In this document: positions 37,705 through 56,218 of the stretch, one piece after another | How positions within the stretch are numbered: position 1 is the stretch's first letter | How the letters are laid out: the number at the start of each line of letters is the position of its first letter | Source of the DNA: Chlorobiota bacterium | GTDB lineage: Bacteria; Bacteroidota; Bacteroidia; Bacteroidales; JAADGE01 | Assembly (NCBI GenBank): GCA_013153865.1 | Contig: JAADDR010000063.1 | Location: forward strand, 1 to 56,229 | Direction of reading: 5' to 3' | DNA length: 56,229 nucleotides | Made by a program: the position numbers and the translations under genes | Notes under the pieces: generated by a model | Databases searched by the model: none | What the model saw: only the letters and a program-made list of their open reading frames with translations | Told to the model about the DNA's origin: nothing

Positions 37705-39393
37705 TTATATTTGTGAGTCTCTTATCGATTCCGAAACGTTAATTACGTAGTCTCCGAGTTTTTCGCATGACGAGAATATTTCGTTATAGAATATTCCTGT
37801 TTTATATTTATATTTTTTTGCTTTTATGTTTTTAATGTGCTCTTCTCTGAGTTTATTTCGGAAACTGTTTATTTCGTTTTCTATTTCGTATGCTTTGGTG
37901 ATATCGACTTCGGCATAATCTTTATTAAGGTTATTGAGCATTTCGTCGAGAGCTTTGTCTATTAAAGCATACATATCGGAAATGTTTTTTGAAATATCAT
38001 CCGGAAATTCCACTTTGTTTTCGCGTTTAAGTACGAGAGCTTTTGCCAAGTTTGTGCATGAATCTCCTATGCTTTCGATATTATCTATTATTTCGAACAT
38101 CCCTCTTATTTTAAGCGAACCGGATTTGCTGAGTTCTCCTTCCGAAATTTTTGCGAGATAATCTGCAATTTCCACTTCCATTCTGTCCGAAATTTCTTCG
38201 TATTTTTCAATTTTTTTGAACAGTTTTTCGAATTTTTTTTCTTTTTGTGTATTGCTCAATTCTTTAACAAAACCGAACATTTTGGTAACCCTTTCTCCGT
38301 AAACGTATATTTCTTTTCTTGCTTGTAATATTCCGAGTTCGGAGGTTGAAACCATACCTGTGTTTATGTATTTTAAGCGGAATTCTTCGTCTGAGTCTTT
38401 GTCAGGAACCATTTTTATTACTATTTTTTCTATTAGTTCTACGAACCATACCATTATGAATGTATTCATAACGTTAAAAGATGTATGGAATAGCGATAAT
38501 GCCACCGGTATTGATGATGCGTCGGTAAGCGGAGAGGGGCTTCCGGATTCGATAACAATCCGGTTAATAAATTTAATTACGGGATAAAATAGTATGAGTA
38601 TCCATATTACACCGAAAACATTGAAAATAAAGTGGGCTCTTGCGGCGCGTTTTGCCGATACGTTTGCAACCGTTGCGGCAAGGTTTGCGGTTATTGTTGT
38701 ACCGATATTTTCTCCGAGTACCATTGCCGCCGCCATTTCGAAAGATATAATTCCGTTGTAACATAATACGAGTGTCAGAGCCATTGTAGCGCTTGATGAT
38801 TGTATTATAACGGTAAGTAATGTTCCTACGGCGAGAAAAATTAATAATGAGATGTATCCCAGGTCTGTATAGTTTCCGAGGAAATGTAAAAGTTCGGGGT
38901 TGCTTTTTATGTCCGGAACTGATTCTTTTAAATATCCTAAACCAATAAACAGTAAAGAGAAGCCTATTATCAGTTCGCCCCATGATTTACGTTTGGTATT
39001 TTTTGAGAACAGCAGCGGGAATCCGAGCCCGATAAGCGGTATTGCTATGCTGCTCATATGGACTTTAAATCCGAGTATCGAGATAAGCCATGCGGTAACC
39101 GTGGTTCCGATATTTGCACCCATTATAACGCCTATTGATTCGGCGAGGGAAAGTAAACCCGCATTAACAAAACTTACAACCATAACTGTTGTTGCGGACG
39201 AAGATTGTATTATTGCGGTTATTAAAAATCCGGTAAAAATTCCTTTAACCCGATTTGATGTCATGGCGGCAAGAATGCTTCTCATCTTGTCTCCCGCCAC
39301 TTTTTGCAGGGATTCGCTCATAAGTTTCATCCCGTATAAGAATATTCCCAAAGAACCGATTAAGGTCAGGAATTCGGCTATTCCGTATTTCAT
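37705..39393 (-). CDS. Na/Pi cotransporter family protein with C-terminal PhoU-like domains
   Basis: It is 562 aa. The N-terminal polytopic region carries duplicated QSSSAT(T/M) motifs and GANIGTT/GENIGTT. The C-terminal ~200 aa is helical and PhoU-like. Confidence 0.88.
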   Translation of the reverse strand: MKYGIAEFLTLIGSLGIFLYGMKLMSESLQKVAGDKMRSILAAMTSNRVKGIFTGFLITAIIQSSSATTVMVVSFVNAGLLSLAESIGVIMGANIGTTVTAWLISILGFKVHMSSIAIPLIGLGFPLLFSKNTKRKSWGELIIGFSLLFIGLGYLKESVPDIKSNPELLHFLGNYTDLGYISLLIFLAVGTLLTVIIQSSSATMALTLVLCYNGIISFEMAAAMVLGENIGTTITANLAATVANVSAKRAARAHFIFNVFGVIWILILFYPVIKFINRIVIESGSPSPLTDASSIPVALSLFHTSFNVMNTFIMVWFVELIEKIVIKMVPDKDSDEEFRLKYINTGMVSTSELGILQARKEIYVYGERVTKMFGFVKELSNTQKEKKFEKLFKKIEKYEEISDRMEVEIADYLAKISEGELSKSGSLKIRGMFEIIDNIESIGDSCTNLAKALVLKRENKVEFPDDISKNISDMYALIDKALDEMLNNLNKDYAEVDITKAYEIENEINSFRNKLREEHIKNIKAKKYKYKTGIFYNEIFSSCEKLGDYVINVSESIRDSQI

Positions 39394-43533: not shown

Positions 43534-46290
43534 TTATTTGATATAATATTTATACAGATAATTATCTTTGTTTCCGACAATTAACGAGAACCGGGGATTA
43601 CGGTCGAAAACCGTAATGCTGAAAAGTCCTGTTCCCGCCAGCGGAAAGCCTTTGCATAATTTTCCTTTGTTGTTAATTAAATAAATTTTTCCGGAGGCGC
43701 TTGCTCCTGTTCGTATGTCTTTGTCTCCGAATTTATAAACGGAAATATTTCCGTTTATTTTTTCGTCGTAAGAATACGAGTATAGTCTTTTTTTGTTTTT
43801 TCCGTCGAATACATCGGTTTGGTTTTTATCCGTAAAAATATATTCGGGGATATTGTCTCCCGTTATATCTTCATAAACGAAGAAATGGTTTCTTGTGTAT
43901 GTTTTAAGTTCTGTTTTTTTAACTTTTCCGTTTTCGTATATGTAATAGACCGTTCCTGCGGGGTTGCTTACGCAGAAGTGAGCTTTGTCAGCTGCATTGT
44001 CTTCAGCGAAATATATTTCGGTATTTTCCGATAACGGAATGTTTACTTCCGGAGATACTCTTACCATGCCTTTACGGTTAAGTATGTAGAGTTTGTTTTT
44101 GTCTCTGAATACGATGTAGTCTTTGTCGTTGTTTTTAAAGTGCCGGATTTTTTGTGTTACGTTTGTTTCTGTTTTGTCGAATTTCCATCCCGGTATTATT
44201 TCGCCGTTTTTATCGAACAGATATACGTTTTTGTTTGCGCATGCGACGAATATTCTGTAGTTTCTGTTTTGGTCGTAATCGAACAGTGCTATTCCGTTGA
44301 CGGCTTTTGATTTGAGTTTTACGGGGTATCCTTCGAGCCAGTTTCCTTTTCTGTCTATGCAGTATATTTTATTTTCGGTGTTAAACAGAAGTTGAAGTTT
44401 GTTGTTTTCGTAATAGTCTATTTGGTATATGTCGCTTATTATTTTGCCGTCGAGTTGTCTTGTCCATAATATTTTGCCGTTTTTGTCTATAAGGTATAAT
44501 TTGTTTGCCGCATCTTGTATTACTATTTCTTTTTCGTCGGTGTTGTGGTTGATTACGATATAGGGTTTTGTGGCGATAAGTGTGTCTAAACGTACTTCCC
44601 AAACGGTTTCGGATATTTCGCGGTTAACGGAGTTAAGGCCTATATCGACGGTTGTATAAATCGGGTATGCATCGAAAATAAATTGGATTGCCGGGCCTTG
44701 TATGCGTTTGAGGGAGGAAAGACTTTTGTCGAATTTTTTTATTGTTTTTTCTTTAAGTGTTTGTTTTATTTTTTTTGCGGAGTGGAATATATCCGCATAT
44801 AAAAAGATGTTTGATTCGTCGGGCAGTGATTTTAAGAACCGGTAGTTTGGTGATTTGCGTTTAAAAGTTTTGTCTTTTTCGTAATTGTAAATAAGGTCTT
44901 TTATGTCGCCGGTATTGTTTCCGAAAACCATAAAATCGTCGAGCAGGGTGCAGTATCCGAGATTATTGTTTTTGAATACTTCGCCGTAGAATATTTCCGG
45001 TATGTTTTTTACGGGCAGTTTAATTATTTTGTAATTGTCTTCTTCGGTGTTGAATATTTGTATCAGGTTGTTTTTTTCGATTTTTTCTTTTTCGGCATAT
45101 TTTGTAATTATGTTATCGAAGAAGTCTTCGGCTTTTGTTTTGTTTTTGTATTTTATAAAGACGTATTCCCGCTGGTTTTTGCCGTTTTTGTTGATATCTT
45201 CCCATATAAGTGCTATTTCGTCTGATGTTACGGCATATAAATCCGTTTCGTCTTCTTTTATTTTAAATTTTTTGTAAAATTCGGCTAATTGAATTTGAAA
45301 GTTATTAAGGTTTTTAATTCTTGCCAGAAAGTCTTCGTATTTGTATTTAAATTCGTTACCGTTTTTTATGTTAAATGATAAAAAGAATGCTGTTTTTTCG
45401 GGCATTATTCCGAGAACGTCGCTTTTTTCGGGGTTTGTATTTTTAAATACCGAAAGGAATTGCATTTCGGGTTTTAGAATTGTGTGTCCGGTAAGTTTGA
45501 GATGTTTTCTTTTGAGAGAGATGTCGAAAGCAGACCAGTAAGCTGTATTTTGCAGCAGTTTAAGAGTTTTTTTAAAAGAATTATTGAAATTATTGCCCGT
45601 ATTAGAGAAAAATCGTTCGTAATTCAGGAATATTTCGGCATCGCCGCGGTTTTCCGTTTTTTCGTAAAGATTTTCGAATGCCGGATTTTTTTGCAGTCCT
45701 ATTCCGCTGTTTATTGTTTTTATTGATTTTTGGATAAGTATTTCGGAGAAACTCAGAAGCATGTAATCTTTGTAGAACGTGAAAACTAAATGTTTGTTTT
45801 TTTTTGAGGTTTCGGATAGTATTTCAGCTCCGGCAAATTCGGTTTTTTTTATTTTTGCATGCGGGTTAATTTCTTTTAATATTGTTTTTATAAGTTCTTT
45901 ATTTTCGTTGTTGTTTTGGGCTCCGGTTGCGAACAGGAAAGCTGATTTGCCGTGTCCTTGGGGGTGTGCCGACAGAATTACGTTTTTTTCGCTGAAGAAT
46001 TTTTTAATTTTTTTGTTGTCGTGAATCAGTGAGTCGGCAAATAGTATGTTTTCGAAAAATTTTTCGGTAAATAAGTTTCCTGCGAGAGTTTCTTTAAGGT
46101 CTTCGTTTTTTGATATTTTGTTAAGCAGATAATTGATGTCGTCTGTTTCGATAAAGAATGAAACGTCCGGCGGTATTGCATTTATTACCGGGGGTAATTT
46201 ACGGCTTTTTTCTTCGAGTTTTATTGACAGAAATATTACTGCCGATACCGCTATTACGGATATTATTATTAAAAATTTATTGTTTAGCAT
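43534..46290 (-). CDS. Large membrane-anchored protein: N-terminal TM anchor, ~550-aa unknown region (DUF3352-like start), C-terminal beta-propeller-like repeats
   Basis: It is 918 aa and the N-terminal anchor is FLIIISVIAVSAVIFLSI. The C-terminal third carries a recurring motif (NKLYLIDKNGKILW, NKIYCIDRKGNWLEGYP, NVYLFDKNGEIIPGW, NKLYILNRKGMV, GKIYLINNKGKLCKGFP). Its start overlaps the dusB stop by 14 nt. Confidence 0.7.
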   Translation of the reverse strand: MLNNKFLIIISVIAVSAVIFLSIKLEEKSRKLPPVINAIPPDVSFFIETDDINYLLNKISKNEDLKETLAGNLFTEKFFENILFADSLIHDNKKIKKFFSEKNVILSAHPQGHGKSAFLFATGAQNNNENKELIKTILKEINPHAKIKKTEFAGAEILSETSKKNKHLVFTFYKDYMLLSFSEILIQKSIKTINSGIGLQKNPAFENLYEKTENRGDAEIFLNYERFFSNTGNNFNNSFKKTLKLLQNTAYWSAFDISLKRKHLKLTGHTILKPEMQFLSVFKNTNPEKSDVLGIMPEKTAFFLSFNIKNGNEFKYKYEDFLARIKNLNNFQIQLAEFYKKFKIKEDETDLYAVTSDEIALIWEDINKNGKNQREYVFIKYKNKTKAEDFFDNIITKYAEKEKIEKNNLIQIFNTEEDNYKIIKLPVKNIPEIFYGEVFKNNNLGYCTLLDDFMVFGNNTGDIKDLIYNYEKDKTFKRKSPNYRFLKSLPDESNIFLYADIFHSAKKIKQTLKEKTIKKFDKSLSSLKRIQGPAIQFIFDAYPIYTTVDIGLNSVNREISETVWEVRLDTLIATKPYIVINHNTDEKEIVIQDAANKLYLIDKNGKILWTRQLDGKIISDIYQIDYYENNKLQLLFNTENKIYCIDRKGNWLEGYPVKLKSKAVNGIALFDYDQNRNYRIFVACANKNVYLFDKNGEIIPGWKFDKTETNVTQKIRHFKNNDKDYIVFRDKNKLYILNRKGMVRVSPEVNIPLSENTEIYFAEDNAADKAHFCVSNPAGTVYYIYENGKVKKTELKTYTRNHFFVYEDITGDNIPEYIFTDKNQTDVFDGKNKKRLYSYSYDEKINGNISVYKFGDKDIRTGASASGKIYLINNKGKLCKGFPLAGTGLFSITVFDRNPRFSLIVGNKDNYLYKYYIK

Positions 46291-47281
46291 TTTCTGTCGA
46301 GTGAGAGTTTCCGTATTTTAGTTTTATTTGGTCTAATATATCGTAAATTTCGTTAATATCGGTCGAAGTTAATAATTTTAATCTTGTTTCTTTAAAATTT
46401 TTAAGACCTTTGAAGTATAGAGCGAAGTGTCGTCTCATTTCGAATATTCCTCTGTTTCCGTCTTTGTATTTAATTGATTTTTTGAAGTGTTGTTTTGCTA
46501 TATCGACTTTTTGGTTTATGTCCGGTTCGGGTAATATTTCTCCTGTTTTGAGGTAGTGTTTGATTTCTTTGAAAATCCAGGGTCTTCCTATGCTTGCTCT
46601 TCCTATCATTATTCCGTCGGGTTTGTATTTTTCAAAGGCATTTTTTGCCGATATGCCGTCGGTTATGTCGCCGTTTCCTATTACGGGTATGCGGATGTTA
46701 GGGTTTTGTTTTATTTTTCCTATAAGAGTCCAGTCCGCTTTTCCTTTGTACAGTTGGCTTCTTGTTCTTCCGTGAATTGTAAGGGCTTTTATGCCCGTGT
46801 CTTGCAGTTGTTCGGCGATTTTGTCGATTATTATGCTGTCGTTATCCCATCCGAGTCGTGTTTTTACCGTTACCGGCAGTTTTACGGCATTTACGATTGC
46901 TTTTGTCATTTCTATCATTTTGGGTATGTCTCTCAGCATTCCGGCGCCGGCTCCTCTTGTTGCTATTTTTTTTACGGGGCATCCGTAGTTTATGTCGATG
47001 AGGTCGGGACCGGCTTCTTCTGCAATTTTGGCGGCTTCTACCATTGCGTCGATTCTGTGACCGTAAATTTGTATTCCGGCGGGGCGTTCGTCGTTGTCTA
47101 TTACGAGTTTTTTCAGTGTTTTGTCTATGTTTCTGATAAGAGCTTCGGATGCGACAAATTCGGTGTAAAGCAAATCGGCGCCGAATGATTTGCATATTTT
47201 GCGAAAGCTTCTGTCGGTAATGTCTTCCATGGGTGCAAGCAGAAGCGGATATTCGGGTATTTTTATGTTACCGATTTGCAT
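46277..47281 (-). CDS. dusB: tRNA-dihydrouridine synthase (DusB-like)
   Basis: LLLAPMEDITDRSFR, DINYGCPVKK and LTIHGRTRSQLYKGKADW are Dus-family FMN-binding TIM-barrel motifs. Length is 334 aa. Confidence 0.92.
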   Translation of the reverse strand: MQIGNIKIPEYPLLLAPMEDITDRSFRKICKSFGADLLYTEFVASEALIRNIDKTLKKLVIDNDERPAGIQIYGHRIDAMVEAAKIAEEAGPDLIDINYGCPVKKIATRGAGAGMLRDIPKMIEMTKAIVNAVKLPVTVKTRLGWDNDSIIIDKIAEQLQDTGIKALTIHGRTRSQLYKGKADWTLIGKIKQNPNIRIPVIGNGDITDGISAKNAFEKYKPDGIMIGRASIGRPWIFKEIKHYLKTGEILPEPDINQKVDIAKQHFKKSIKYKDGNRGIFEMRRHFALYFKGLKNFKETRLKLLTSTDINEIYDILDQIKLKYGNSHSTENAKQ

Positions 47282-47310: not shown

Positions 47311-48861
47311 TTATCCGAGTTTTTTAAGCAGATTTTTGATGTTAACTTCGTTATCTACGGTTTCGAGTATGTTTTCGGTTTTTATTCTTTTTTGTTCCAT
47401 CGTGTCTCTGTATCTTATTGTTACGGTGTTGTCTTTTAAGGTTTGATGATCTACGGTGATGCAGAACGGAGTTCCGGTTGCGTCTTGTCTTCGGTATCGT
47501 TTCCCTATTGAGTCTTTTTCTTCGTATTGACAGTTGAAGTCGTATTTCAGCATGTTAAGTATTTCTCTTGCTTTTTCGGGCAGTCCGTCTTTTTTTACCA
47601 ACGGCAGAATTGCGACTTTAACGGGTGCAAGAGCGGGCGGGATTCTGAGAACTGTTCTTGTTTCGGTTTTTCCGTTTTCTTTTTTGATTGTTTCTTCGTC
47701 GTATGCGTTTGAGAGAATTGCGAGGAACATTCTGTCAACTCCGATTGATGTTTCTATTACGTACGGGACGTATGATTTGTTTGTTTCGGGGTCGAAGTAT
47801 TGCAGTTTTTTGCCGGAAAATTCTTGGTGTCGCGTGAGGTCGAAGTCGGTTCTTGAATGTATTCCTTCGAGTTCTTTGAATCCGAACGGGAATTTAAATT
47901 CTATGTCTGTTGCGGCTTTTGCGTAGTGTGCGAGGTTTTCGTGGTCGTGAAAGCGGTAATTTTCGTTGCCGAGGTTTAGTGCTTTGTGCCATTTTATTCT
48001 GGTATTTTTCCAGTATTCGAACCATTTGTCTTCTTCGCCGGGGCGGATAAAGAATTGCATTTCCATTTGTTCGAATTCCCGCATACGGAATATGAATTGT
48101 CTTGCCACTATTTCGTTACGGAATGCTTTTCCGATTTGTGCGATTCCGAAGGGGAGTTTCATACGTCCTGTTTTTTGGACATTGAGGTAGTTTACGAAGA
48201 TTCCTTGTGCGGTTTCGGGTCGGAGGTATATTTTGTCGGCATTTTCGCTTACCGAGCCGAGTTTTGTGTCGAACATAAGGTTGAATTGTCTTACGTCCGT
48301 CCAGTTTTTGCTTCCGGAAACGGGGCATGTAATGCCTTCGTCGATTATTATTTGTTTTATTTCGGCAAGGTTGCCTGTTTCGGTTGCTTTTTTAAATCTG
48401 TCGAGTATTGTGTTTATTTTTTTTTGTCTTTCGATTATTCGTGAGTTTGTTTCTCTGAATTGTTTTTCGTCGAATGCATCGCCGAATCGTTTTTTTGCTT
48501 TTTCGATGTCTTTATTTATTTTGGCTTCTATTTTTGCGACGTGTTCTTCTATGAGGACATCTGCCCGGTATCTTTTTTTGGAGTCTTTGTTGTCTATTAA
48601 GGGGTCGTTGAAAGCTCCTACGTGTCCTGATGCTTTCCAGACTTCGGGGTGCATGAATATTGCGGAGTCAACTGCAACGATATTTTCGTGGAGTTTTACC
48701 ATTGAGTCTTTCCAGTATCGTTTTATGTTTTCTTTGAGTTCGCTTCCGTTTTGTCCGTAGTCGTAAACGGCGCTTAATCCGTCGTATATTTCGCTTGATT
48801 GAAATACGAATCCGTATTCTTTTGCGTGTGCTATAACTTTTTTGAATTTGTCTTCGGTCAT
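47311..48861 (-). CDS. glyQS: Glycine--tRNA ligase (homodimeric class II type)
   Basis: YGFVFQSSEIYDGLSAVYDYGQNG, LRPETAQGIFVNY, IAQIGKAFRNEI and ETSIGVDR are present, with a C-terminal anticodon-binding domain. Length is 516 aa. Confidence 0.95.
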   Translation of the reverse strand: MTEDKFKKVIAHAKEYGFVFQSSEIYDGLSAVYDYGQNGSELKENIKRYWKDSMVKLHENIVAVDSAIFMHPEVWKASGHVGAFNDPLIDNKDSKKRYRADVLIEEHVAKIEAKINKDIEKAKKRFGDAFDEKQFRETNSRIIERQKKINTILDRFKKATETGNLAEIKQIIIDEGITCPVSGSKNWTDVRQFNLMFDTKLGSVSENADKIYLRPETAQGIFVNYLNVQKTGRMKLPFGIAQIGKAFRNEIVARQFIFRMREFEQMEMQFFIRPGEEDKWFEYWKNTRIKWHKALNLGNENYRFHDHENLAHYAKAATDIEFKFPFGFKELEGIHSRTDFDLTRHQEFSGKKLQYFDPETNKSYVPYVIETSIGVDRMFLAILSNAYDEETIKKENGKTETRTVLRIPPALAPVKVAILPLVKKDGLPEKAREILNMLKYDFNCQYEEKDSIGKRYRRQDATGTPFCITVDHQTLKDNTVTIRYRDTMEQKRIKTENILETVDNEVNIKNLLKKLG

Positions 48862-48878: not shown

Positions 48879-48886
48879 CAAATTTA
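48879..48886 (-). promoter_or_regulatory. Candidate -7 promoter element (TAnnTTTG) for glyQS
   Basis: The minus strand reads TAAATTTG 18 nt upstream of the glyQS ATG. There is no clean -33 TTG. Confidence 0.3.
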
Positions 48887-48942: not shown

Positions 48943-50115
48943 TTATATACTCAGGAATGACAGTATGAAAGATACTACGGTAATTATTATTCCGGTAATA
49001 AATACGTTGTATGATATTCTTAAAAGTTTGTATTTTTTTGCGAGGACTTTTCCGAGTGCGTATTGGTCGTGAATCATTGCCGAATAGAGGTCGTCTTCGT
49101 TTTTCATTACTTCTCTCAGAGCTTTTTCGTATTTTTCGAGTTCCATGTTGTAGAAGTTTCCGAAGAATAACAGGTTTACTTTTTTTTGTTTCAGGTCTTC
49201 TTCCGTAAAAGTTCCGGATGATACGACGGGGCGTGTTGAGAGTATGGCGAATATTACCGTAACGACACAGAATAACAATACTATAATTACCGGTATTATT
49301 ATGTTCGGCATTTCTTCGAATTTAGATATAAGAAATGTCATTGATATTGACATTATGATTGTGTTAACGGAAATCAGTATGTTTGATTTTTTGTCGGCAA
49401 TGGAGCTTAGGTTTATTTGCATTCTTGCGGTATTTCTGAGCATTGATTCTACACCGCGCGAGTATTTTCTTGTTTTTTTATTTTTCTTTTTTTTGTCTTT
49501 TTTCTTTTTTTTCATGTTTTCTATTTCGGTTTGCAGTTTTTTCAGTATTTTTTCTTTTTTCGGTTGCAGTTCTTTTTTTGCAAATTCCGTATGATATTTA
49601 TGGTTGAGAAAAAATTGTTCGGATTCGAGATAAAATTTTTGTTTGCTTATGTTTTTTCCGGAGATGTTTTCTTTTTCTTCTCTCATTTTTTCTATTATTT
49701 TAAAATAAAATTCTTCGGTAAGGTGGAAAAGATCGGCATCGCAAAGGATTTCGGCTTCCGGAGAATCCGGTGATTGCGGTGTTCGGGTTGCTTTTATGCA
49801 TTTTTTTATTTTTGAAATTGTTTTTTCGTCTATACCTTTATTTTTTAAAAAGTCGGCAGCTATTTCGGCGCCGGTTTCTTCGTGGTTTTCCGGATTTATG
49901 ATGTATCCGGTGTCGTGAAACCAAGCGCAAAGTTTTACGAGGTTTATACTGTTTGAGTTTAAACCGGATTTTTTGCCTATTATTTCGGCTTTTTCGGCAA
50001 CGTATTTTGTGTGTTCGATTGTGTGAAATTTGATATTTTCGGGCAGTTTTTCGGATAAAAGTTTTGTAACGTAATCGGCTGCTTCGTTTATTAAGTCGTT
50101 GTTTATTGTGTTCAT
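48943..50115 (-). CDS. HD-domain phosphohydrolase fused to a C-terminal 3-TM module resembling the Pycsar effector (DUF5706) family
   Basis: I start the gene at MNTINNDLINEAADYV; the upstream ATG at 50199 would overlap the preceding gene. The HD motifs are HTIEH, WFHDTGY and CDADLFH. A poly-K linker (KKKKKDKKKKNKK) follows. The C-terminal module reads MLRNTARMQINLSSIADKKSNILISVNTII... with TM helices, STRP and FFGNF. Confidence 0.7.
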   Translation of the reverse strand: MNTINNDLINEAADYVTKLLSEKLPENIKFHTIEHTKYVAEKAEIIGKKSGLNSNSINLVKLCAWFHDTGYIINPENHEETGAEIAADFLKNKGIDEKTISKIKKCIKATRTPQSPDSPEAEILCDADLFHLTEEFYFKIIEKMREEKENISGKNISKQKFYLESEQFFLNHKYHTEFAKKELQPKKEKILKKLQTEIENMKKKKKDKKKKNKKTRKYSRGVESMLRNTARMQINLSSIADKKSNILISVNTIIMSISMTFLISKFEEMPNIIIPVIIVLLFCVVTVIFAILSTRPVVSSGTFTEEDLKQKKVNLLFFGNFYNMELEKYEKALREVMKNEDDLYSAMIHDQYALGKVLAKKYKLLRISYNVFITGIIITVVSFILSFLSI

Positions 50116-50155
50116 TTTAGTATGTTTATGTTTTGTTAACGGTATAAAAAGTTTG

Positions 50156-53100
50156 TCAGAATGTATAACTGAAGCCGAAGTTAATAAAATTATCTTCAAC
50201 AGATTTGTTATAAGTGAGAGTAAGTGCGGTAAAGTTAAACGGTATGAGCCAAATGCCTGCTCCGTAGCCGTCGTGCCAAGTCGGGGAATCTTGATTTTCG
50301 TAAAATACTTTTCCCGTGTCGTTAAAAATCATAATTCCGGCTTCGCCGTTGAGCAGGTATGTTCTTATGTTTTTAATTTTAAATCTTATTTCGGTATTTT
50401 GGAATAAGTATGCGTCTCCGGCGAATCTGTCTGCTCTGAAACCTCTCAGGTTTGTTTTTCCGCCTAGAAAATTAGCCGTCATGAAATCGTATTCGCCGAT
50501 GTTTACGGCGCCTCCGAATCTTAAAGCGAGAACGATTCGGGGGTCTTTTCTGAAGCTTAGAAACAGTCTGATGTCAGAGTTTATTTTTACAAAATTTTCA
50601 TTGTTTTTATTTATGTCGTAAAATCCTGCAATTTTTGTTTTCCACAGTATGCCTCTTTCGGGCCTTATTTTATTGTTTAGGGTATTTACGGTATATTCGG
50701 TGTTTATTCCCGTGTAGTTATGTTCGTTGAATGCCGAAGCCGGCAGTTGTTCGGCAATGTCGCCGATGAATCTTCCGGCTGTGTCGGTAAGTTCGTAGTA
50801 TTTGTAAAATATTCCCAAGGTGTAATTAAAGTTTTTTCCTGTTGTTTTTTTCAGTGCGGGATTAATCATTATGTGTTTGTATCTTAGTCTGTAGTAATAT
50901 TCGGAGTCGTATGTTTTAACCGTTTCGTTTCCCAGACCGTAAAAATTATTTACGTTGCGCGGGAAATTAAGTTCGGCGTTTATCGACAAGTCGAAGTTTT
51001 GCGATATTGAAGAAAACAATCCGTTGTATTTAAATGAAAATGCTCCGGTTTTAAATGCGATATTTCCGGTTATTTTTTGGATAATCGAGTCTCGAAAGTT
51101 GTATTTTTTTATTTTTGTTCCTATTCCTATATATGCACCGTCGTCAATTTTGTATCCGAAATAAAGTAAGGGAATGGTTTTGTCGTATTTGAATTGAAAT
51201 CTGTCGTATTTATTAATTGATTTATTTTTTGAGAGTTGCATTCGTGTTTCGTTTTTTGTAACGAATTTGTTTTTTTTGTCTTTTCGGTCGTAAATTATTG
51301 TTTTTTTGTTTAATCCGGCAACGTGTGACGTGTCGATAAATGTATCGTTACCTTTTCCTCCTATAATTCGTATTTTTATTCCTTTTTTACTTTTACCGGA
51401 AATAACGAAGGTGTCTTTTCCTTTTAGTCCGTAAAGTCTTATTTCTTTTGTTTCGTTTTTTATAAATTCCCGTTTATATATTTGTTTTTCGGGTTTGTTT
51501 TTGTGTAAGGTATAGACGGTGACTTCAGTGTTTCCGTTTTTTTTTCTTTTAACTTCAAAAAGGTCGTTTTTGTTTGTTCCGGTAACATCAACGGCTTTTG
51601 CAAGGAATTTATATAGTTTTTCGGCATATTCCGGAAGGTATTTAAGTCTGTATTTTAATTTTTCTTCGGTAAAATTTCCTATTGAATCGCAGATATTTTC
51701 CGGCATTTGCGATATTGCTCTTTTTATGACGGAATCGGTTATTTTAAGTTTTATGTCTTCGGCGGTTTTTTTCCAGTCGTTCAGATCGGGTTCCGTTATG
51801 AAAGTTCTGTCGAAGTGTCTGGCATTGAAAGCCAATCCTTCGACATCTTTAAGAGAGTCGTTAAATCCTTGAAATTTACGGGCTATCCATTTTTGTTTAA
51901 GTATTTTCATAGCCAGTCCTTCGTTTACGAAAAAAACTTGGTCTCTGTCTCTCGGTATCGGCTTGTATATTTTATTATTTTCGGTTTTAAATTCCGCCCA
52001 TCTCCATTGGTCGTCGTGTCTGTCCCAGTCGTTAAGCAGTATGTCGAATATGCGAGCTCTCATAACTGCTTTTTGGTCAACGGTGCAGTCTGCGTTTTTG
52101 TGAATTTTTTTAATAACTTTAGTTGTGCTTATTATTTTTTCGGAATTTCCGAAGCTTGCGACGTCTTTTCTGTTTCCGGCAGGTCTTTCTTCAAATAAAA
52201 AAACTTGCCGGGCTGTTTTGTCTTGATAAATTCCGAATCCGGGGTCGTCGGGTATCCAAAAGATTTCGGGGTTTGTATGCATAATTCCCGCGGCGTCGGC
52301 AAGAACCGGAACAACTACTGCCGCAAAGGGGTTTGATGCCGAGACACCGTCTTGCAAGATGTCTACGGCGGCGGTATTACGAAATTCCGGAGGCAGTGCT
52401 TTTTCTACGGATTTGTTTATTGAGCGTAATACATATTGCTTGTTGTCGGGGTTTTTCATTCTTAAAGAAAATGTTTGTTGACCTCCTCCTCTTTTAATAA
52501 TCGACAGGCCTCCTTTTTGTGTTCTTATGTCGAAAACGGGGAATTCCGTTTCTGCGGCCCAAATGTTTCGATAGTTGTTTCCTGTCATAAAGCGTCGGAA
52601 TTTGCTTACTTTGTCATATTTATCGTTTATTTTTGTTTTTACGACAGTATCCGTAATGCGAAAATTTTCGGCATATTTTTTTTCTTTTTCGGGATTATAA
52701 ACCGGTTTGTTGAGTATTGTTTTTTCGAATATTATTTTTTCTTTTCTTTCGGATGTTATAAATTCCAGTTTAACATCTCCGTTTTTGAAAAATATAAGTT
52801 TCCCGAAACCTTTTCCTGAATATGCAAAATTTGTTTTGTTGTTTTTTTTTGCCGTGAAAGATGCTTTTCCTCCGCTTCCGCTTATTATATGTCTTAATCC
52901 GTTTTTATTTACGTATTGCAGGTTGTGTTCGTGTCCGGCAGCGTATATTACGTCGGGGTATTTTTTAAAGACGTTTGTCATCAGACGAATAAATTCTTTG
53001 TATTCGGGATGTGCCGTATCTTGAATGTTCCCCAGATATTTTCTGTATCCGGTGTATATTATTCCCGGTAAGGGTATGAATAATGCGGGGTTTAGGTTTC

Positions 53101-53821
53101 GAAGCGGAAAGATATAGTCGGATAAGGGGAAATATCCGCCGTGTTTTCCTATGCTGTATAGGGGGTGGTGTGTTGCGAATATTATTTTTTTATTTTTGTT
53201 TCGGTTAAGGATATCGTCTATACGCAGGTATAAATCGGCTTCGGATTTAAAAATACATTCTTGGTCTGTTTCTTGATTCGTGTTTTTTTGAAACCATTGT
53301 TGCGAGTCGAATATTATCAGGGTAATGTCTTCTGACAGGTTAATTTCTTCGGGACCGGAGCATGCATTGTCCGGACGGTAAACGTTTCCTTTGTTAAGGT
53401 ATTGTTCTATGTATTTTTCTTCGTTTTTTACCGATTCGTAACCGTCTTTTTTGCCTTTTGCCCAGTCGTGATTTCCCGGGAGCATAAATATTTTTCCGTT
53501 GAAAGGTTTAAAAATTTCGAGTATTTTTTTCAAGTTTTTTTCTGCTTCGGGGAAGTTTTTTTCGGATGAATCCGGCAGTCCGAAAGGGTAAAGTATGTCT
53601 CCTAAGATTATAACGGCTTTTTTTGACGAGTCGGCATCTGAATATTTTTTAAAAAAGTTAAGGTTTGAGAGTCCTGCGGAGTCTGTTCTCAGGTCTCCGA
53701 TAAGATATATCGAATAAAGAATCTCGGAATGTTTGTTTTTGTTGTCGTTTTGTGCATAAGAGCTTATTGCGATTACGGTATATGCAATTGTTATTATTAT
53801 GTTTTTTATTTTTAATTTCAT
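50156..53821 (-). CDS. Calcineurin-like metallophosphoesterase fused to a large middle region and a C-terminal Omp85/BamA-type beta-barrel
   Basis: It has a signal peptide. The metallophosphoesterase motifs are LIGDLRTD, ILGDILYP, LPGNHDW, ATHHPLYS and AAGHEHNLQY. The C-terminal ~350 aa barrel contains GGKTNLRGFRADRFAGD and ends in ...GFSYTF. Confidence 0.8.
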   Translation of the reverse strand: MKLKIKNIIITIAYTVIAISSYAQNDNKNKHSEILYSIYLIGDLRTDSAGLSNLNFFKKYSDADSSKKAVIILGDILYPFGLPDSSEKNFPEAEKNLKKILEIFKPFNGKIFMLPGNHDWAKGKKDGYESVKNEEKYIEQYLNKGNVYRPDNACSGPEEINLSEDITLIIFDSQQWFQKNTNQETDQECIFKSEADLYLRIDDILNRNKNKKIIFATHHPLYSIGKHGGYFPLSDYIFPLRNLNPALFIPLPGIIYTGYRKYLGNIQDTAHPEYKEFIRLMTNVFKKYPDVIYAAGHEHNLQYVNKNGLRHIISGSGGKASFTAKKNNKTNFAYSGKGFGKLIFFKNGDVKLEFITSERKEKIIFEKTILNKPVYNPEKEKKYAENFRITDTVVKTKINDKYDKVSKFRRFMTGNNYRNIWAAETEFPVFDIRTQKGGLSIIKRGGGQQTFSLRMKNPDNKQYVLRSINKSVEKALPPEFRNTAAVDILQDGVSASNPFAAVVVPVLADAAGIMHTNPEIFWIPDDPGFGIYQDKTARQVFLFEERPAGNRKDVASFGNSEKIISTTKVIKKIHKNADCTVDQKAVMRARIFDILLNDWDRHDDQWRWAEFKTENNKIYKPIPRDRDQVFFVNEGLAMKILKQKWIARKFQGFNDSLKDVEGLAFNARHFDRTFITEPDLNDWKKTAEDIKLKITDSVIKRAISQMPENICDSIGNFTEEKLKYRLKYLPEYAEKLYKFLAKAVDVTGTNKNDLFEVKRKKNGNTEVTVYTLHKNKPEKQIYKREFIKNETKEIRLYGLKGKDTFVISGKSKKGIKIRIIGGKGNDTFIDTSHVAGLNKKTIIYDRKDKKNKFVTKNETRMQLSKNKSINKYDRFQFKYDKTIPLLYFGYKIDDGAYIGIGTKIKKYNFRDSIIQKITGNIAFKTGAFSFKYNGLFSSISQNFDLSINAELNFPRNVNNFYGLGNETVKTYDSEYYYRLRYKHIMINPALKKTTGKNFNYTLGIFYKYYELTDTAGRFIGDIAEQLPASAFNEHNYTGINTEYTVNTLNNKIRPERGILWKTKIAGFYDINKNNENFVKINSDIRLFLSFRKDPRIVLALRFGGAVNIGEYDFMTANFLGGKTNLRGFRADRFAGDAYLFQNTEIRFKIKNIRTYLLNGEAGIMIFNDTGKVFYENQDSPTWHDGYGAGIWLIPFNFTALTLTYNKSVEDNFINFGFSYTF

Positions 53822-53825
53822 GATT

Positions 53826-54761
53826 TTATTTTTTCGGAGAGAATTTGAGTATTGTTGCTTTTTTGTTTTTGCCTTCGTTTGAGATAAAAAGTGTTCCGAC
53901 AGAGTCGAAGCAAATACCTTCGGGTTGCGGGAATATTTTTTTGTCGAGTTTTGTTACCGACAGTATTTTACCTTTCGGAGACAGTATTATTAGTGATTTC
54001 CCTACCGAAGCCGTTATATAAATATTTTTGCTTATGGGATGTATTGCTATTCCCGAGGGTTGAAAACTTATGTCACCGTCCGGAAGGTTTATCAGGTTTA
54101 GAGATTTGAGACCGAGTTTTGCAGCATGATTATAATTTTGATATTTTTTTACGGAATCGGTATTTATCAGTAAGAACGGTGATGGTTCAAGTTTTTCGGT
54201 TTTAATGTTGAATTTATAAACGGCTTTGTATTTTTTATGTTTTTTGTTTTTCGGGAAAGGGTATCCTTTGCATGCTATCAGGAGATTTTCGGAGTTACTG
54301 TCTGCACACAGTCCTTCGATATTATTTTTTTCGGTAAGAAATGTTTTGTGTTTTACTATTTTACGTTTGTTTTTCGAAAATATGTTTTTTATTTCATATA
54401 ATGTTCCGTTGCTTTTAACAGCCCACATGTTATTTTTTATTATTTCGAGTGCTTCGAAATCGCCTTTGCCTGCAAAATGTATTTTTTGTTCTGTTTTTCC
54501 GGTGTTCAGGTTAAACAGGTATATTATTCCTTTTTCGTCTTGTATGCATGCAAGTTTTTGTTTTCCTGATACGGTAAGACCGGATATTTCTTTTAATTCT
54601 TCGGTAAGCCGGTAAGTTTTGTCCGGTTCGGATAGTGAGTAGGGAATGTTTGGATTTTCGGGGATGTTTGTATTTTTATTTTCAATAATTAAAAATATTA
54701 CGGATGAAATGAATATTGCCGATAATGTTATAATGCTTATTTTTTTTATTCCTAGGGTCAT
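53826..54761 (-). CDS. SdiA-regulated-type beta-propeller protein with N-terminal membrane anchor
   Basis: It is 311 aa and the anchor is IITLSAIFISSVIFLII. The segments YRLTEELKEISGLT, FEALE, EGLC, PSGIAIHP and PEGICFD resemble the SdiA-regulated (YjiK-like) domain. Its ATG directly abuts the cyclase stop (TAAATG). Confidence 0.65.
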   Translation of the reverse strand: MTLGIKKISIITLSAIFISSVIFLIIENKNTNIPENPNIPYSLSEPDKTYRLTEELKEISGLTVSGKQKLACIQDEKGIIYLFNLNTGKTEQKIHFAGKGDFEALEIIKNNMWAVKSNGTLYEIKNIFSKNKRKIVKHKTFLTEKNNIEGLCADSNSENLLIACKGYPFPKNKKHKKYKAVYKFNIKTEKLEPSPFLLINTDSVKKYQNYNHAAKLGLKSLNLINLPDGDISFQPSGIAIHPISKNIYITASVGKSLIILSPKGKILSVTKLDKKIFPQPEGICFDSVGTLFISNEGKNKKATILKFSPKK

Positions 54762-56084
54762 TTATTTTATACTTTTCAGTTTATATAATAAAATACGTTT
54801 TTTGCTGCCCTTAATTTGTGCTTCTTCGAGTTTTTCGAAATCGGCTTTGTTTTTTTTATCAAGTTCTTCGAAAACATTTTTGGAAATAAGCATATTTGTA
54901 TTGTATTTTTTGTTCAGTTGCTCTATTCGAGATGCTATAATAACTACTTTCCCGGTTATAGAGAATTGTTTTCGCTCGGAAGATCCGATGTTTCCGGTAA
55001 CAGCCTCGTCATAATGTAATCCTATACCTATTTCTGTTTCGGGAATATTTCCTTTACGGCATTCGTTTTTGAGTTTTTTGAGTATTTTTTTAGATGCTTC
55101 TGTTGCATTTAAGCTGTTGTTTTTCAGTGAAACCGGAGCTCCGAATGTAGCCATAAAACCGTCTCCGAGAAATTGATTGATTACTCCTTCGTATTCTTGA
55201 ATAATGTCAATCATAAAACCGAACAGACTGTTTAAATACGTAACAACTTCTTCGGGTTGTCGTTGTTCTACAAACGGGGTAAAGTTTCGTATATCCAAAA
55301 ACATGATACAAACTTTTTTTCTTACTCCGGAGAGTTCGTTTTTATTTTTAAGAATATTTTCGGCAATTTGCGGTGATATTTGTTGTCCGAATAAATTTAT
55401 TATTTCATTTTTTTCCTGAATGTTTTTTCTTATTACCAGTATTTTCTTTTTTATCAGGTCTGCCGCAAATCCGGCAGCAATACCTGTAATAATCATAATT
55501 AATCCTTCTCCGAGATATTGCATTCCGGTTAAATCCGGTTTCATGTTGTTTGTAATATTACTGAAATTTGAATAATATACCGATATTAATATAAATTCGG
55601 AAGCAGCTAATATGCCTGAAAAAACAGACAGTCTGAAGTTGAGGTGGAATGTTGATAAAACTATGAAAATAAAAAAAGTCAGAGATGCCGGAGTTTGTAA
55701 TATTACGGTATTGTTTGAGTATTCTACTATAAAAATCAGTAAAAGGCTCAGAAGACTTATTTCGGAGAAGATATTAAAATATTCGAAAGTATATGCGGAA
55801 AATATTTTACGTTTTTTATTTAGAACAAGAAAGATTATGAGTTCGTATATTATGATAATAACCGTAAATATTAAAATTGCGTAAATTCCTATATTTGTTC
55901 CGAATAATTTAAAATACGGTTCTTTGTAAAAAAAATAAATTATTATTAAGAAAAAAGCTTCGAAGCCCAAAAGTCCTATAAGTATGGCTGCCCGTAAACG
56001 TTCGCTTTCAAAAAATTCAGAATAAAACAATTCGTTTGCGGATATTTTATCGTAAGATATTTGTTTTTTATTGTTGTTGCGCAT
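54762..56084 (-). CDS. Membrane-anchored (about 6 TM) class III adenylate/guanylate cyclase-domain protein
   Basis: ATG at 56084 is preferred over the TTG at 56111. The N-terminal ~220 aa is hydrophobic. The C-terminal catalytic domain reads KVCIMFLDIRNFT...FLGDGFMATFGAP...GIGLHYDEAVTGNIGS...FSITGKVVIIASRIE. Confidence 0.85.
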   Translation of the reverse strand: MRNNNKKQISYDKISANELFYSEFFESERLRAAILIGLLGFEAFFLIIIYFFYKEPYFKLFGTNIGIYAILIFTVIIIIYELIIFLVLNKKRKIFSAYTFEYFNIFSEISLLSLLLIFIVEYSNNTVILQTPASLTFFIFIVLSTFHLNFRLSVFSGILAASEFILISVYYSNFSNITNNMKPDLTGMQYLGEGLIMIITGIAAGFAADLIKKKILVIRKNIQEKNEIINLFGQQISPQIAENILKNKNELSGVRKKVCIMFLDIRNFTPFVEQRQPEEVVTYLNSLFGFMIDIIQEYEGVINQFLGDGFMATFGAPVSLKNNSLNATEASKKILKKLKNECRKGNIPETEIGIGLHYDEAVTGNIGSSERKQFSITGKVVIIASRIEQLNKKYNTNMLISKNVFEELDKKNKADFEKLEEAQIKGSKKRILLYKLKSIK

Positions 56085-56180
56085 ATTTAAATTATACCGA
56101 AAATAATGCAAAAATATGACATGTCGGTGAAAAATACCGTTAAAATTACAAATATTTCGAATTTATATTCCCCGAAAATT

Positions 56181-56218
56181 AAAAAACAGTTTCAATTTTA
56201 AACCGAAACTGTTTTTTT
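56181..56218. terminator. Hairpin with flanking A/T runs, upstream of the cyclase gene; likely terminator of a minus-strand gene beyond the right edge
   Basis: aacagtttc (56185-56193) pairs with gaaactgtt (56205-56213). The hairpin is flanked by an A-run (56181-56186) and a T-run (56212-56218), so it could act in either direction. Confidence 0.55.

Follow-up and report, generated by a model that had tools for sequence, protein, structure and literature searches.

Gene content of the locus

The genes described here lie in a 56,229-nt stretch of DNA (the window), positions 1 to 56,229 of contig JAADDR010000063.1 (assembly GCA_013153865.1) from a Chlorobiota bacterium placed by GTDB within the Bacteroidales. 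The window contains a minus-strand block of four genes at 48943-56084 (~7.1 kb) which encode, in 5' to 3' order, a membrane nucleotidyl cyclase, a beta-propeller protein, a metallophosphoesterase/kinase-like/Omp85 protein, and an HD domain fused to a three-transmembrane (3-TM) PycTM module (HD-PycTM). Comparison with other genomes showed that the inner-membrane HD-PycTM protein and the outer-membrane protein, which joins a kinase-like domain and an Omp85 barrel and optionally a purple acid phosphatase (PAP) domain, form a phylum-wide core and that the propeller, as a frequent third part, usually accompanies this core. The cyclase is no universal component; it joins the core as an accessory restricted to lineages of the Bacteroidales and Cytophagales.

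The open reading frame (ORF) list and direct reading of the junctions gave intergenic gaps of 0, 4 and 40 nt, in agreement with the compact packing described in an earlier note on this DNA. The cyclase gene (54762-56084) starts with ATG, the TTG at 56111 being its start in the mechanical ORF list, and its stop codon runs straight into the start codon of the propeller gene (53826-54761; junction TAAATG). The sequence AATC separates the propeller gene from the gene for the 1221-aa Omp85 protein (50156-53821), and exactly 40 nt separate the latter from the HD-PycTM gene (48943-50115), whose ATG is at 50115. An 81-nt spacer then precedes glyQS, whose ATG is at 48861. The GC content of the module is like that of the rest of the window.

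Predicted proteins of the module

The cyclase gene product (440 aa) has six N-terminal hydrophobic segments by hydropathy and matched the Pfam Guanylate_cyc profile (PF00211) at 6e-23, with a score of 81.7 bits against a curated cut-off of 21.9, as a class III cyclase should. Six-TM class III adenylyl cyclases of the Rv1625c/Cya type consist of a 6-TM anchor and one catalytic domain and require homodimerization. The module cyclase resembles them in its 6-TM anchor, its single catalytic domain and the presence of both metal-binding Asp residues (FLDIR and GDG, invariant in orthologues) and of the Arg. Canonical class III cyclases pair Lys with Asp or Thr for ATP and Glu with Cys, Ser or Gly for GTP, and have a transition-state Asn-Arg pair. 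The module cyclase has neither canonical specificity pair and lacks the Asn-Arg pair: its specificity residues are Gln (INQFLGDG) and Ser (FSITG), and Ile stands in place of the transition-state Asn (GKVVIIASR), all of them invariant in all 440-aa orthologues. Gln in place of the adenine-specifying Lys also occurs in Rv0386; Ser as the second specificity residue and Ile for Asn set the module cyclase apart from both Rv1625c and Rv0386. An assignment of the product from the specificity residues was tried and rejected, as Gln/Ser fits neither the adenylyl nor the guanylyl cyclase rule nor the F/R/Q pattern of EaPycC (PMC11224242); with this pair and the change of Asn to Ile, the product is therefore not predictable. 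The best matches in a PDB sequence search were Cya2 (2e-24), OaPAC (3e-17) and CyaB (2e-16), and the Pycsar cytidylate cyclase 8jsf matched at 7e-5, so that by sequence similarity the enzyme appears to belong to the physiological class III type. Orthologues of the cyclase are 60-70% identical across families.

The HD-PycTM protein (390 aa) consists of a predicted cytosolic HD phosphohydrolase domain (aa 1-200; 49516-50115, minus strand; Pfam HD 2e-11) that a Lys-rich helix joins to the 3-TM module. The metal ligands of the HD superfamily (H31, H35, H67-D68, D126 and D128) were invariant in the 18 sequences aligned. The best Foldseek matches to the HD domain were 2pq7, 2pjq and the NTP pyrophosphohydrolase YpgQ, with a probability of 1.00 to HD hydrolases; HD-GYP, the PPX/GppA C-terminal domain and PDE10 came lower in the list, the matches to PDE10A and HD-GYP being weaker (E 0.04-0.6) than those to YpgQ-like hydrolases. 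The domain is like the YpgQ-like hydrolases (5dqw, 2pq7, 2pjq and 3djb) in its fold (TM-score 0.6-0.7 on the target) and its intact H..HD..D ligands, and unlike them in its fusion through the Lys-rich helix to a channel-type 3-TM module. By this structural comparison, a role as a phosphodiesterase for cyclic nucleoside monophosphates (cNMP) is possible but not indicated.

The C-terminal module (aa 215-390 plus stop; 48943-49473, minus strand) is a true homologue of PycTM (PF18967, formerly DUF5706), which it matched at 6.5e-33 in Pfam, and it also matched the PADLOC PycTM effector profile from end to end (1.6e-17). Hydropathy gave three hydrophobic segments, and the alignment showed two highly conserved cytosolic segments, YSRGVESM..IADKKSNIL and KVNLLFFGNFY..LGKVLAKKYKLLR. 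PycTM effectors are cNMP-activated pores (PMC11224242), and PucTM is a hexamer with a channel of roughly 15 Å (bioRxiv 10.64898/2026.08.12.744502).

The 1221-aa gene product begins with a signal peptide ending in ...SYA/Q, which is followed by the phosphatase, the kinase-like domain, a beta-rich linker and the Omp85 barrel. The PAP-like metallophosphoesterase domain (aa 38-360; 52742-53710, minus strand) matched Pfam Metallophos (5e-10) and, weakly, Metallophos_C, and its motifs GDxxY, GNHDW, HHP and GHEHN were near-invariant in the alignment. In a PDB sequence search, mammalian-type PAP/TRAP and Toxoplasma GAP50 (3tgh) were the sole matches at E<0.001. The domain shares the GDxxY/GNHD/HH/GHEH motifs and an extracytoplasmic location with the mammalian enzymes (ACP5/TRAP; 1qfc and 1ute), but identity is low and the domain is embedded in a 1221-aa outer-membrane protein and missing from family members of ~870 aa. 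Since a signal peptide precedes it within an Omp85 protein, the domain is predicted to be extracytoplasmic. A CpdA-type phosphodiesterase was rejected on these relatives, the presence of GDxxY and the location outside the cytoplasm given by the signal peptide and the Omp85 barrel; as an extracytoplasmic domain of acid-phosphatase type, it is therefore unlikely to degrade cytosolic cNMP. The Riemerella metallophosphoesterase "MPPE" was considered as a literature precedent and set aside, being a different protein, an effector secreted by the T9SS.

The kinase-like domain (aa 385-745, ~360 aa; 51587-52669, minus strand) was assigned tentatively from its fold in an AF2 model (pLDDT 84). Its top Foldseek matches were Rio2 (probability 0.99, E 4e-4, TM-scores of only 0.24/0.36), YihE, Stt7 and macrolide phosphotransferases; searches against Pfam (E up to 10) and PDB sequences gave no match, so the fold comparison alone was informative. 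Three motifs are invariant, RGGGxQ, DWDRHxDQWRW and PRDRD, and on our own reading RGGGxQ, DWDRHxDQ and RDRD may correspond to the Gly-loop, the catalytic loop and the metal-binding Asp. The family of this domain comprises 2326 representative clusters at 50% identity, in which it always lies near residue 400 of ~1230-aa proteins or near residue 40 of ~870-aa proteins. The ~870-aa proteins lack the phosphatase and retain the kinase-like domain and the barrel; because both forms keep these two parts, they constitute the invariant core of the protein.

The kinase-like domain is joined to the barrel by a linker (aa 746-900; 51122-51586, minus strand) that is beta-rich by DSSP of the AF2 model and on reading of the sequence contains two RTX-like GGxGxD repeats. 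The nonapeptides concerned are GLKGKDTFV and GGKGNDTFI (51338-51430, minus strand), and their conserved Gly and Asp suggest a small Ca-binding beta-roll. The Omp85-family beta-barrel (aa 901-1221 plus stop; 50156-51121, minus strand) matched Pfam Omp85 at 1e-12, with 48.5 bits against a cut-off of 24 and coverage of positions 10-325 of 325, and the NCBIfam Omp85_fam profile at 3e-19, under the subfamily cut-off of that model. The protein resembles PlpD (type Vd; patatin, POTRA and Omp85) in having a signal peptide, an N-terminal enzymatic passenger and a C-terminal Omp85 barrel. Unlike PlpD, its passenger is PAP-like and kinase-like with an RTX-like linker; a POTRA domain had no Pfam match, and the AF2 secondary structure, with beta strands only in the linker, contained no POTRA-like element.

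The propeller gene product (311 aa; 53826-54761, minus strand) is a six-bladed NHL-type beta-propeller that matched Pfam SdiA-regulated at 4e-8 and, in PDB, the Pizza and PknD NHL propellers. Its single N-terminal hydrophobic segment is read as an anchor, and the propeller is predicted to be periplasmic.

The domain assignments of the earlier note thus held for the 6-TM class III cyclase, the anchored SdiA-regulated-type propeller and the fusion of HD to a DUF5706-like 3-TM module. Its metallophosphoesterase-Omp85 fusion was right as to both domains, but the phosphatase is PAP-like and not of CpdA type, and the kinase-like domain had been overlooked. Its view of both phosphoesterase folds as cNMP-degrading fared less well: the HD fold is present, but it is closest to YpgQ, and the metallophosphoesterase is PAP-like.

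Conservation of the core pair

The HD-PycTM alignment was scanned against one genome per species, of which at least 554 matched, and the best 80 loci were compared over ±10 kb by tblastn and ORF clustering. The gene for the kinase-like-Omp85 protein was within 10 kb of HD-PycTM in 67 of these 80 species loci and, when only loci with both flanks of at least 8 kb were counted, in 56 of 57; the median gap between the two genes was 244 nt. Their arrangement varied. The genes are co-directional with Omp85 upstream in the window module and many Bacteroidales, co-directional with Omp85 downstream in Prolixibacteraceae-type loci, Chitinophagales and Sphingobacteriales, and divergent in Flavobacteriales, some Chitinophagales and Cytophagales. 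The core pair was found in Bacteroidales/Marinilabiliales-type genomes, Flavobacteriales, Chitinophagales, Sphingobacteriales, Cytophagales and one Chlorobiota metagenome-assembled genome, and the other genes flanking HD-PycTM were not conserved. An SdiA-type propeller was detected in 35 of the 80 loci and a distantly similar NHL lipoprotein in 17 more. That the genes stay adjacent although they have been rearranged repeatedly in different orders speaks for functional coupling and against inherited synteny, and co-occurrence and adjacency of the orthologues across Bacteroidota, as the earlier note had proposed, were seen in at least three orientations and at least five orders.

Homologues of HD-PycTM number more than 6400 and have a uniform length of ~394 aa. 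The HD-PycTM/Omp85 pair occurs across Bacteroidota and in some Chlorobiota/Ignavibacteria, with identities of 40-70% across orders. Two scaffolds (2 and 12) of one Mariniphaga sediminis assembly gave the same tblastn coordinates, identities and E-values for all module genes over a 21-kb locus, to be explained by a recent duplication of large size or else by an artefact of the assembly.

Several other genes recur beside HD-PycTM in the 80 loci. The most frequent encodes a ~790-aa GAF-domain protein (41 loci), followed by a 622-aa pyruvate-kinase-like protein (15 loci), a secreted histidine phosphatase (12 loci) and PPK1 (11 loci, between HD and propeller), and together these point to a phosphoryl/nucleotide theme. 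Examples of these neighbours are L001:6680-8545, L037:11209-13218, L013:14767-15396 and L009:13184-15556 in our numbering of loci. In two loci, L135 and L141, the pyruvate-kinase-like gene directly follows the cyclase and HD is absent. The GAF protein, the pyruvate-kinase-like protein, PPK1, the histidine phosphatase and the Flavobacterial NHL lipoprotein were sought in the window and none was present.

Linkage of cyclases to the module

A class III cyclase was found near the module in 23 of the 80 loci, in at least six gene orders. With cyc for cyclase, prop for propeller, MPE for the metallophosphoesterase protein, HD for HD-PycTM and PK for the pyruvate-kinase-like protein, these include cyc-prop-MPE-HD, cyc-MPE-HD, cyc-HD-MPE-prop, cyc-HD-PK-prop-MPE and a cyclase convergent with HD. 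On the pFA2 chromid of Fulvitalea axinellae (NZ_AP025316.1) the order is MPE< prop< HD-PycTM> cyc>. The linked cyclases belong to three non-orthologous families, the 440-aa 6-TM type, a membrane type of 365-400 aa and a cyclase with a response-regulator (REC) domain, and the 365-400-aa paralogue (~25% identity) fills the slot of the 440-aa cyclase before the propeller. The recruitment of non-orthologous cyclases argues for functional coupling.

The reciprocal comparison used 43 metagenomic cyclase orthologues with at least 50% identity and at least 1.5 kb of sequence downstream. A module gene adjoins the cyclase in 35 of the 43, and in 26 of these 35 HD-PycTM is no more than 200 nt away, while two genes lie between them in the window. 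None of six cyclases below 50% identity was linked to the module. The reciprocal result and the three recruited families support a specific genomic link between class III cyclases and the module.

Transcription boundaries and neighbouring genes

The hairpin that the earlier note had placed upstream of the module (56181-56218, minus strand) has a 13-bp stem followed by a U-run, as in an intrinsic terminator, and was supported by RNA folding (minimum free energy -17.4 kcal/mol, z = -3.9, with none of 200 shuffles equally stable). On the native contig (L081, JBPLVC010000004.1) the stop codon of a same-strand Usp gene is 28 nt upstream of it; because of this position it is read as the terminator of the Usp gene, which isolates the module and marks its 5' boundary. 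The Usp gene, on the module strand, encodes a tandem-Usp protein of 273 aa, and a divergent gene beside it encodes a soluble protein of 471 aa in which a strong class III cyclase match (5e-43) is combined with an HD domain (2e-6). Both genes lie just past the high end of the window (L081:1479-3870), and the second is another cyclase/HD combination adjoining the module.

Two promoter-like sites with the Bacteroidota -7 motif TAnnTTTG were the only ones on the minus strand between 46000 and 56229: TATTTTTG at 56109-56116, which is 24 nt ahead of the cyclase ATG, and TAAATTTG at 48879-48886, which lies in the 81-nt spacer before glyQS and marks the 3' boundary of the module. The motif scan found none inside the module on the minus (coding) strand. 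Across the window the motif occurred 86 times against 78 expected, that is, without enrichment, and a single site is not significant. Within 48943-56084 it occurred 11 times on the plus (non-coding) strand and not at all on the coding strand, an imbalance probably due to the strong bias of the coding strand towards A (AT skew about -0.3). Because the minus strand is A-rich, the pattern agrees with one transcription unit without proving it. Scans for terminator-like and sigma-70-like sequences inside the module, which are uninformative for Bacteroidota, gave no excess over chance. The view that the module is its own transcription unit is therefore consistent with a real hairpin and with the lack of internal TAnnTTTG sites and goes no further, the motif not being enriched and the strand being A-rich.

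Downstream of the module, glyQS, dusB (46277-47281, minus strand) and a gene for a 918-aa DUF3352/beta-propeller protein (43534-46290, minus strand) are likewise closely packed, the last sharing 14 nt with the 3' end of dusB. Some 10 kb downstream of the module is a phosphate-related gene, which encodes a Na/Pi cotransporter-PhoU fusion (37705-39393, minus strand), and no conserved linkage between it and the module was seen in the other loci. Rfam and tRNA scans of the window gave no matches.

Proposed function of the module

We favour, at about even confidence, the interpretation that the locus represents a conserved envelope module of Bacteroidota, in which a cNMP-controlled inner-membrane channel/hydrolase is coupled to periplasmic and outer-membrane phospho-processing, and that it does not serve in defence. 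The six-TM cyclase would sense a membrane or envelope cue and make a cyclic mononucleotide, the identity of which is uncertain given the Gln/Ser pair. By analogy with the defence effectors, the 3-TM PycTM module would respond to the cyclic nucleotide and serve as a regulated channel or gate. The fused HD hydrolase may then process a nucleotide, either terminating the signal or acting on an NTP substrate, and the inner-membrane step would be coupled to extracytoplasmic phosphoryl chemistry, for which the anchored propeller and the phosphatase/kinase-like part of the Omp85 protein would be responsible. Action of cNMP on PycTM is favoured because the 3-TM module has as its sole characterised relatives pore/channel effectors activated by cNMP. 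In a more specific and rather improbable version, HD-PycTM would be a housekeeping cNMP-gated hexameric inner-membrane channel, a physiological relative and possibly the evolutionary source of the Pycsar/Pucsar pore effectors, which would form a trans-envelope system with the kinase-like-Omp85 protein and the propeller and would release nucleotides or a different phosphoryl donor to the extracytoplasmic kinase/phosphatase for modification of an envelope or surface substrate.

Several observations weigh against the proposed signalling function. Most loci of Flavobacteriales, Chitinophagales and Sphingobacteriales have no cyclase within 10 kb, and the core is therefore apparently able to work without a linked cyclase. 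The cyclase of the window has neither the canonical Asn nor a Lys/Asp or Glu/Cys pair, so its activity and product are predictions; the nearest structural relatives of the HD domain, as far as the fold comparison goes, are not cNMP phosphodiesterases; and the extracytoplasmic kinase-like domain has no obvious supply of ATP. All four proteins are known here from sequence and predicted structure, and co-transcription of their genes is read from their spacing. The mode of cNMP binding by PycTM is not established even for the defence effectors (bioRxiv 10.64898/2026.08.12.744502).

A possible, although less probable, explanation is that the core pair and the propeller handle phosphate, polyphosphate or nucleotides, or take part in envelope biogenesis, without any cyclic nucleotide, the cyclases being a lineage-specific addition or responding to a shared cue. 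Such a role would fit the conservation of the core pair far beyond the linked cyclases, the phosphoryl-transfer enzymes among its neighbours (PPK1 in 11, the pyruvate-kinase-like protein in 15 and the histidine phosphatase in 12 loci), an HD fold that is nearest to YpgQ and also resembles the PPX/GppA C-terminal domain, and a metallophosphoesterase of acid-phosphatase type. It is harder to reconcile with the independent recruitment of three cyclase families and the position of ~80% of orthologous cyclases beside the module, which are difficult to account for unless a direct functional tie exists, with the fact that the characterised relatives of the 3-TM module are all cNMP-activated effectors, or with the rank of the GAF protein, whose fold is able to bind cNMP, as the next most frequent neighbour (41 of 80 loci).

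We consider it very unlikely that the locus is a Pycsar-type abortive infection system with extra genes, in which phage would trigger the cyclase, cNMP would open the PycTM pore and the cell would die. The PADLOC PycTM and PycC profiles both match, orthologues are named 'Pycsar system effector family protein' by NCBI, and a PycTM homologue (6.5e-33) is directly adjacent to a cyclase in 26 related loci, many of which have the cyclase directly upstream of HD-PycTM in a two-gene-like arrangement. However, the PycC match (95.2 bits) was dropped as evidence because the profile does not discriminate, a control REC-cyclase scoring 86.7 bits, and the PDB search places the cyclase nearer to physiological class III enzymes (2e-24) than to a solved PycC (7e-5) and so does not assign it to the immune clade. 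Immune cyclases reportedly change more rapidly in evolution than the physiological enzymes, and the distribution of Pycsar systems is patchy and of the defence-island type, whereas the module is phylum-wide, slowly evolving and of nearly a single architecture. Its obligate partner is an outer-membrane enzyme, its neighbours glyQS and dusB are housekeeping genes, and a search of a phage collection gave no module match. Plasmid matches were confined to large (105-860 kb) non-mobilizable replicons, the full-length ones to replicons of 238-860 kb. The suggestion of the earlier note that the system is defence-like is not supported, because the core is phylum-wide, slowly evolving, set among housekeeping genes and absent from the phage collection. 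By the sequence comparisons made here, every test that was run points to a housekeeping role. The statement of the earlier note that this is no canonical two-gene Pycsar locus stands, given the HD fusion, the propeller and Omp85 partner genes and the conserved distribution.

That unrelated neighbours simply share an inherited order is scarcely credible, for while the arrangement is uniform within single orders such as Flavobacteriales, adjacency survives inversion and reshuffling in at least five orders in which the other flanks change, was found in 56 of 57 loci against a chance expectation of ~0.5% (any gene, ±10 kb, genome of 4 Mb), and extends to cyclase slots occupied by non-orthologous genes.

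Relation to known systems and implications

Pycsar systems, reportedly described by Tal et al. in 2021, pair a PycC cyclase with a PycTM effector, and Pucsar systems pair PucC with PucTM. Cyclases of the immune PycC clade make cCMP or cUMP, and Pycsar effectors carry a PycTM or a CNBD-TIR domain. The module is like Pycsar and Pucsar in the genomic coupling of a class III-fold cyclase to a protein with the 3-TM module PF18967, with the cyclase directly upstream of the PycTM protein in many related loci. It differs in the fusion of the 3-TM part to an HD hydrolase, in a membrane-anchored cyclase that appears to be of the physiological class III type, in its constant partnership with an outer-membrane phosphatase/kinase-like Omp85 protein, and in being conserved throughout the phylum outside any defence-island context, whereas Pycsar is patchy and fast-evolving. 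No published description was found of HD-PycTM fusions, of the phosphatase/kinase-like Omp85 family, or of their linkage. On our reading the module would be a case of cNMP-to-PycTM signalling that serves another biological role and has partners without precedent, and there is a modest chance of the trans-envelope pairing being categorically new.

The distinction matters for annotation. The HD-PycTM orthologue on pFA2, a 437-kb non-mobilizable replicon, is among those that carry the Pycsar effector name (L164:8980-10200), likely as part of a systematic mis-annotation as defence, and automated tools would probably assign loci in which the cyclase directly precedes HD-PycTM to Pycsar. Defence pipelines and NCBI names would in this way mislabel a housekeeping module as an antiphage system.

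The analysis defines a very widespread, uncharacterised outer-membrane family with a phosphatase and kinase-like passenger on Omp85, ~2300 clusters at 50% identity and an obligate inner-membrane partner. If the proposed function is correct, a non-immune relative of the Pycsar-type 3-TM effector exists throughout the phylum and is wired to membrane cyclases, which would offer a tractable route to the cNMP gating of the PycTM channel family and to the origin of defence effectors. The module also suggests that cyclic-nucleotide signalling plays a part in the envelope biology of the Bacteroidota, a phylum in which such signalling is poorly known.

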